Assembly: GCF_000026545.1 (NCBI RefSeq)
Contig: NC_011601.1
DNA length: 64,000 bases
Reading direction: 5' to 3' (one strand)
DNA from: Escherichia coli O127:H6 str. E2348/69
Lineage (GTDB): Bacteria; Pseudomonadota; Gammaproteobacteria; Enterobacterales; Enterobacteriaceae
The translations under genes were made by a program, and so were the position numbers. This document shows, piece by piece, positions 54,128-54,144 of the stretch. Position 1 is the first letter of the stretch; each line of letters starts with the position of its first letter. The notes under the pieces were generated by a model. It ran no database searches, had not been told where the DNA came from, and saw nothing but the letters and a program-made list of their open reading frames with translations.

Positions 54128-54144
54128 AAGTGGTCTGACCTGAT
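54128..54144. promoter_or_regulatory. Candidate FadR operator upstream of fadI
   Basis: aagTGGTCTGACCTGat matches the palindromic FadR box core, about 30-45 bp upstream of the fadI start. Confidence 0.6.

Follow-up and report, generated by a model that had tools for sequence, protein, structure and literature searches.

Is the short near-palindrome that precedes fadI in Escherichia coli O127:H6 str. E2348/69 the operator through which transcription of the fadIJ operon is held in check, and if so, which regulator reads it? The element lies in the 64,000-nucleotide stretch of DNA analyzed here (the window), and an initial annotation, made from the letters alone, had taken it for a binding site of FadR. 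Our analysis supports that assignment: we put the probability at about 0.93 that the box at positions 54128–54144 is the operator by which FadR, a GntR-family regulator, represses fadIJ. We read it so because its sequence match, its position, its deep conservation, its fixed spacing to the promoter and the literature all point to FadR.

Gene Context of the Box

The 801 bp between positions 53900 and 54700 are 100% identical to E. coli O127:H6 E2348/69 and find a match in 5,425 of 5,426 complete E. coli genomes. The features that frame the box are as follows.

50647–52791, minus strand: fadJ, second gene of the operon (TIGR02440, FadJ, 1334.8 bits)
52791–54101, minus strand: fadI, 3-ketoacyl-CoA thiolase, 436 aa (TIGR02446 and the RefSeq annotation of E2348/69)
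54106–54111, minus strand: Shine-Dalgarno sequence of fadI, GGGGAG, 4 nt before the ATG at 54101–54099, as read from the sequence
54128–54144, minus strand: proposed operator for FadR in the fadIJ promoter; ATCAGGTCAGACCACTT when read along the gene, AAGTGGTCTGACCTGAT on the plus strand
54282–54310, minus strand: intrinsic terminator of yfcZ, a 13-bp stem, 9 of whose pairs are G-C, and a T run after it
54327–54635, minus strand: yfcZ, encoding a DUF406 protein
54977–56323, plus strand: fadL

The fadI reading frame scores 899.5 bits against TIGR02446 (FadI; cut-off 711.55, E = 3.5e-271); this model and TIGR02440 are both equivalog models of NCBIfam. The start of fadJ overlaps the stop of fadI, and fadI comes first in this operon, which as a whole is under regulation. 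The spacer between fadI and yfcZ measures 225 bp, and the yfcZ terminator is the distal boundary of the fadIJ promoter region. At the gene-proximal end, an alignment of fadI upstream regions from Enterobacterales has ACAGGGGAG kept beside the ATG in related loci.

Direct reading of the plus strand finds the string aagTGGTCTGACCTGat at exactly 54128–54144, where the initial annotation had located it. Since fadI is encoded on the minus strand, these positions are upstream of the gene; the annotation was right to call them so and had left that orientation unmentioned. It had also set the box 30–45 bp before the fadI start, which is close and slightly off: the box lies 27–43 bp from the A of the ATG, with its centre at 35 bp. 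It sits immediately upstream of the fatty-acid degradation genes fadI and fadJ, a location in keeping with FadR operators, which are placed at genes of fatty-acid degradation or unsaturated fatty-acid synthesis.

Match to the FadR Motif

FadR operators are dyads with a TGG-N5-CCA core, contacted by two winged-helix domains in the FadR–DNA crystal structures. The fadI box has TGG as one half-site and, as the other, CCT rather than CCA; site 1 of fadL is alike in this respect, and the consensus permits either T or A at that position. The GGTCnGACC core forms an inverted repeat without mismatch, and 10 of the 17 positions are self-complementary, so that "near-palindromic", the term first applied to the box, is a fair description.

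The published E. coli FadR consensus is aaCTGGTCnGACC(T/A)Gtt (review PMC9329746). Read on the plus strand, the fadI box departs from it at 2 of 16 specified positions, the best match in the 64-kb window; matches with three mismatches or fewer occur at only two loci there, the fadI box (two mismatches) and fadL site 1 (three). The same window carries further FadR sites.

35293–35309, minus strand: FadR activator site of fabB, GGCTGATCGGACTTGTT; published, and the top or second match with every matrix
54857–54873 and 54881–54897, plus strand: FadR sites of fadL

A single window therefore holds three FadR-controlled promoters (fabB, fadI and fadL), which are usable as internal positive controls.

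A scan with a FadR weight matrix had been suggested as the way to check the initial reading, and the box comes through it well. All matrices were built without the fadI box. The main training set comprises seven sites: fadL1, fadL2, fadD1 and fadD2 (from the primer table of PMC3460868), fabB (PMC4537474), fadB and fabA. The sites of fadB and fabA were confirmed upstream of those genes in K-12. With this seven-site matrix the fadI box scores 14.5 bits and is the top match outside the training set; across the seven-site, symmetrised seven-site and out-of-window matrices its score is 14.2–16.0 bits, and the proven sites themselves range from 6.8 to 17.5 bits when each is left out in turn. The out-of-window matrix was trained on fadD1, fadD2, fadB and fabA only, none of which lies in the window. 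Its top three matches among ~128,000 positions are fabB, the fadI box (rank 2) and fadL site 1, that is, the three FadR-controlled promoters of the window. The symmetrised matrix again places fabB, fadI and fadL1 on top (fadI at rank 3), followed by a gap of 4.8 bits.

The outcome for the fadI box depends on the training set. With an asymmetric matrix of five sites it scores 10.5 bits and ranks 14th of ~64,000 positions, because no site in that training set has G at position 3 or A at position 16, as the fadI box does. For matrices that exclude fadI and rank the box second to fourth, the per-position probability is p = 1.5e-6 to 5.5e-6, which corresponds to 0.0007–0.0025 chance matches this good in the 225-bp fadI–yfcZ spacer and 0.2–0.7 in the whole window. 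Given the latter figure, the sequence match by itself is not decisive; location and conservation across species make it so.

Conservation across Enterobacterales and within E. coli

A scan for FadI in a collection of species-representative genomes yielded 80 Enterobacterales loci, 77 of which had a full upstream flank and were used. In 77 of the 77 the box or a close variant of it is the best matrix match within 200 bp before fadI, a count that overstates the number of independent confirmations, since the loci are related by descent. Measured against 924 coding control segments, all 77 boxes exceed the 95th percentile and 60 of them the 99th. The loci span Escherichia, Serratia, Yersinia, Rahnella, Hafnia and Photorhabdus, and the variants found in distant genera (ATCAGGTCTGACCTGTT, ATCAGGTCAGACCTCTT) are within the FadR consensus or nearer to it.

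The meaningful signal is the comparison of the box with the adjacent leader, which diverges freely. When 76 distinct sequences are anchored on the box, the information content per column comes to 1.78 bits for the box itself, 0.17 for the leader down to the Shine-Dalgarno sequence, and 0.7–0.9 for the promoter upstream. Taken together with the matrix scores, the presence of the box at all 77 loci bears out its reading as a FadR motif.

The distance from box centre to ATG is 23–57 bp in 73 of the 77 loci. Three Buttiauxella loci (L021, L025 and L047) and one from Photorhabdus (L071) retain the box at 73–166 bp from the fadI ATG, a spacing that points to inserted sequence in the leader or to a longer 5′ UTR.

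Within the species, 4,651 of 5,426 E. coli genomes carry the 45 bp surrounding the box without a single change, and 5,297 carry them at an identity of 95% or more. The 160 bp upstream of fadI, the 17-mer included, are the same base for base in E2348/69 and K-12 MG1655. The fadR gene itself lies outside the window; its K-12 sequence finds a match in 5,422 of 5,426 complete E. coli genomes.

Promoter Anatomy

A generic sigma-70 scan returned no promoter in the fadI–yfcZ spacer at its thresholds, and our promoter model is therefore drawn from conservation across species. Upstream of the box the anchored alignment is free of gaps, and the elements there hold a fixed distance to the box while the distance to the ATG varies. 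The following elements are proposed.

54172–54177, minus strand: probable −35 element, TTGGCT (positions −41 to −36 from the box centre; 52 of 75 distinct sequences)
54148–54153, minus strand: probable −10 element, AAGACT, 18 bp downstream of TTGGCT
54149–54154, minus strand: the −10 element in another register, TAAGAC, 17 bp downstream of TTGGCT
54143–54148, minus strand: alternative −10 element, TATGAT, a 5/6 match to TATAAT that overlaps the first two bases of the FadR box

AAGACT or AAAACT occupies positions −17 to −12 from the box centre in 48 of 75 distinct sequences, and the leading A's are present in 72 and 70 of the 75. The arrangement TTGGCT-18-AAGACT predicts a transcription start near 54141, which would place the FadR box at about −3 to +14.

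In E. coli TATGAT has the better look of a −10 hexamer; it was considered as the main −10 element and demoted to an alternative: only 2 of the 75 distinct sequences have it, most orthologues carry TGTTAT or TGTGAT at this position, with G at the critical second base, and its case is further weakened by the lack of an acceptable −35 element at 17 bp. As a −10 element it would predict a start near 54136, the centre of the box. With either −10 element the box would cover the start, a geometry that fits repression of the occlusion type. Published work likewise has the FadR site in the fadIJ promoter overlapping the start of transcription (PMC9329746, citing Campbell et al. 2003).

The spacer between the −35 and −10 elements (aTGTAAaaaaaTgGTTAAg; 54151–54169, minus strand) is unusually conserved across genera. 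It holds TGTAA-N6-GGTTA, a pair of repeats resembling TGTTA that begin 11 bp from each other. These are reminiscent of the direct repeats bound by ArcA(-P), and a site of this kind would fit the reported repression of fadIJ by ArcA.

Reported Repression of fadIJ by FadR

The literature reports direct repression of fadIJ by FadR and, in response to long-chain fatty acids, an induction that depends on FadR, with a site position consistent with repression (PMC9329746); the proposal that FadR represses this operon is supported on these grounds. Together with fadL, fadIJ forms part of the FadR regulon core common to Enterobacteriales, Vibrionales and Shewanellaceae (PMC5343134). A full-text literature search with the site sequence on both strands returned unrelated primers only, and a search for genome-wide FadR ChIP or SELEX data mentioning fadI returned nothing usable.

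The initial annotation spoke of an anaerobic fatty-acid oxidation operon. "Anaerobic" is the label of the original proposal for fadIJ. Of that description the part concerning repression by FadR stands and the adjective is contested, given that ArcA represses fadIJ in anaerobiosis and that the operon is regulated like fadBA (PMC9329746).

A mechanism can be proposed from these elements. When long-chain fatty acids are absent, a FadR dimer would bind the dyad-symmetric box, which lies just downstream of the −10 element, or overlaps it, and extends over the start; RNA polymerase binding or formation of a productive open complex would thereby be blocked. As long-chain acyl-CoA accumulates it would bind FadR, FadR would leave the DNA, and the promoter would fire, presumably aided by cAMP-CRP at an upstream box and further modulated by ArcA. 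In this scheme the match, position, conservation and spacing were computed here, FadR dependence and release by acyl-CoA are taken from the literature, and the start (~54141) is one that we infer.

The element is already known as the FadR operator of fadIJ, and its conservation has also been described before; beyond correct annotation its importance is small. What the analysis confirms is that a genuine operator can be recognized from sequence alone.

Alternative Readings

The box could be, or could also be, a site of PdhR, a pyruvate-sensing regulator of the GntR/FadR subfamily, so that pyruvate and acyl-CoA signals would be integrated at fadIJ. Genomic SELEX with PdhR gives a peak in the fadI–yfcZ spacer, a fadI probe gives a smeared gel shift, and fadIJ mRNA is 1.6- to 4-fold lower in a pdhR mutant (PMC7660256). 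The PdhR box proposed in that work (cAgcGGTaaaACCtgac) falls at 54081–54097, inside the fadI coding sequence, and agrees with the consensus at 7 of 14 positions; 40 bp upstream of it, the FadR box agrees with the PdhR consensus AATTGGTnnnACCAATT at 10 of 14 and has a GGTctgACC core in common with other PdhR boxes listed in the same paper.

A match of 10/14 is nonetheless not above background: 22 loci of the 64-kb window reach 10 or 11 matching positions, so the likeness reflects only the GGT-N3-ACC core of the family. The flanks that separate PdhR boxes from FadR boxes (AATT...AATT) are mostly unmatched at fadI, and PdhR is reported to activate fadIJ (PMC7660256), which is a poor fit to a site covering the transcription start. 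We regard a PdhR site here as distinctly unlikely. If the FadR box were also the true PdhR contact, an idea prompted by the 7/14 agreement of the published box within the coding sequence, two sister GntR regulators that sense acyl-CoA and pyruvate would compete for one operator.

It is highly improbable that the resemblance to a FadR site is a matter of chance, with conservation owed to the discriminator, the initial transcribed region or another factor. The expectation of 0.2–0.7 equally good matches per window, the 14th rank given by the smallest matrix, and the position of the box next to core promoter elements that are themselves conserved would all be compatible with such an origin. Discriminators and initial transcribed regions, however, are not normally preserved between families of Enterobacterales in the form of a flawless GGTCnGACC inverted repeat, and the variants of other genera (ATCAGGTCTGACCTGTT, ATCAGGTCAGACCTCTT) do not stray from the FadR consensus. 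The matrix trained outside the window picks exactly the window's three FadR promoters, and fadI belongs to a FadR-controlled pathway, with FadR-dependent expression on record (PMC9329746).

FadR is a dual regulator, with an activator site at fabB in this very window (35293–35309), and the box might on that account be mainly a positive site, as at fabA, fabB and iclR. Known activator sites of FadR lie upstream of the −35 region, at about −40 at fabA and fabB. An activating role at fadI is exceedingly improbable, since the box is downstream of the conserved TTGGCT/AAGACT and just 27–43 bp from the ATG, and since fatty acids or loss of FadR derepress fadIJ (PMC9329746).

CRP-Like Boxes and Repeats Upstream of the Core Promoter

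PMC9329746 places a CRP site in the fadIJ promoter. The main text of the source cited there for it, PMC6390033, makes no mention of fad genes, and the position of the CRP-like box given here accordingly comes from our own reading of the sequence. Two candidate boxes are present in E2348/69.

54195–54210, minus strand: putative CRP-like box TGTGTcatagcTCCCA, proximal copy; centre at −61.5 if the start is at 54141
54227–54242, minus strand: putative CRP-like box, second copy, 32 bp further upstream, at about −93.5 from the predicted start

A centre at −61.5 is the classical class I position for CRP. Across genera, a CRP-like TGTGT-N6-TCCCA centred −66.5 from the centre of the FadR box agrees at 8 of the 10 half-site positions in 44 of the 75 distinct sequences.

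Tandem Repeats Finder reports a 32-bp unit, present 2.2 times with 100% identity, at 54181–54252. This tandem duplication in E2348/69 created the second CRP-like box, approximately three helical turns away from the first. Relative to K-12, the sequence of E2348/69 upstream of the core promoter is longer by 45 bp, made up of the 32-bp duplication and one additional 13-bp unit (AGAGAAAAGAAGA; extra copy, 54244–54280). Among the five strains compared, the 13-bp unit behaves as a variable-number tandem repeat (VNTR) of about 1 to 5 copies, and the 32-bp duplication is found in E2348/69 only; K-12, CFE299, SRCC 1675 and T309.Ta3 are without it. The operator and core promoter, just downstream of the VNTR, are invariant.

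Strain CFE299 (NZ_OZ465017.1; positions 294–428 of locus L083) has approximately five VNTR copies, and RefSeq places there a 44-aa "hypothetical protein" that spans the repeat in the interval from fadI to yfcZ. Expansion of the purine-rich repeat has most likely given rise to a spurious annotation here.

What is mildly new in the region is limited to this strain-level variation upstream of an invariant operator, namely the 13-bp VNTR and the duplicated CRP-like box, and it could tune fadIJ expression between lineages. If the second CRP-like box is functional, it could raise the cAMP-CRP dependence or the expression of fadIJ in the enteropathogenic lineage. That at least one of two things holds, an effect of the duplicated box on fadIJ expression or a true contact of PdhR with the FadR box as well, we consider unlikely.

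Comparison with Known Operators

The closest counterpart is the K-12 fadIJ (yfcYX) operator (Campbell, Morgan-Kiss and Cronan 2003, per PMC9329746), which is the same element, with no difference in operator or core promoter. Another is site 1 of fadL (AGCTGGTCCGACCTATA), proven by footprint and EMSA (PMC3460868); within the window 713 bp separate it from the fadI box, fadL belongs to the same regulon, and the site has the same TGGTCnGACCT core, with one TGG and one CCT half, and a similar matrix score. The two genes differ in arrangement: at fadL two FadR boxes stand in tandem, 8 bp apart, and repression is only weak (2- to 2.5-fold; PMC3460868), whereas fadI has a single box.

In that respect the fadI operator resembles the one at fadB (ATCTGGTACGACCAGAT), a single 17-bp dyad that precedes a beta-oxidation operon at a short distance from its start codon (26 bp before fadB in K-12), with flanking AT...AT as in the fadI box read on the plus strand. 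With its TGGTA/TACCA halves the fadB box comes close to a perfect palindrome; the halves of the fadI box, by contrast, are GGTC/GACC, and its flanks are less symmetric. We take the fadB operator to be the DNA used in the FadR–DNA crystal structures. One such complex is PDB 1H9T (cited in PMC9329746). The PdhR box, a sister operator of the GntR/FadR subfamily, has the GGT-N3-ACC dyad core in common with the fadI box and is set apart from it by AATT flanks, which are absent at fadI.
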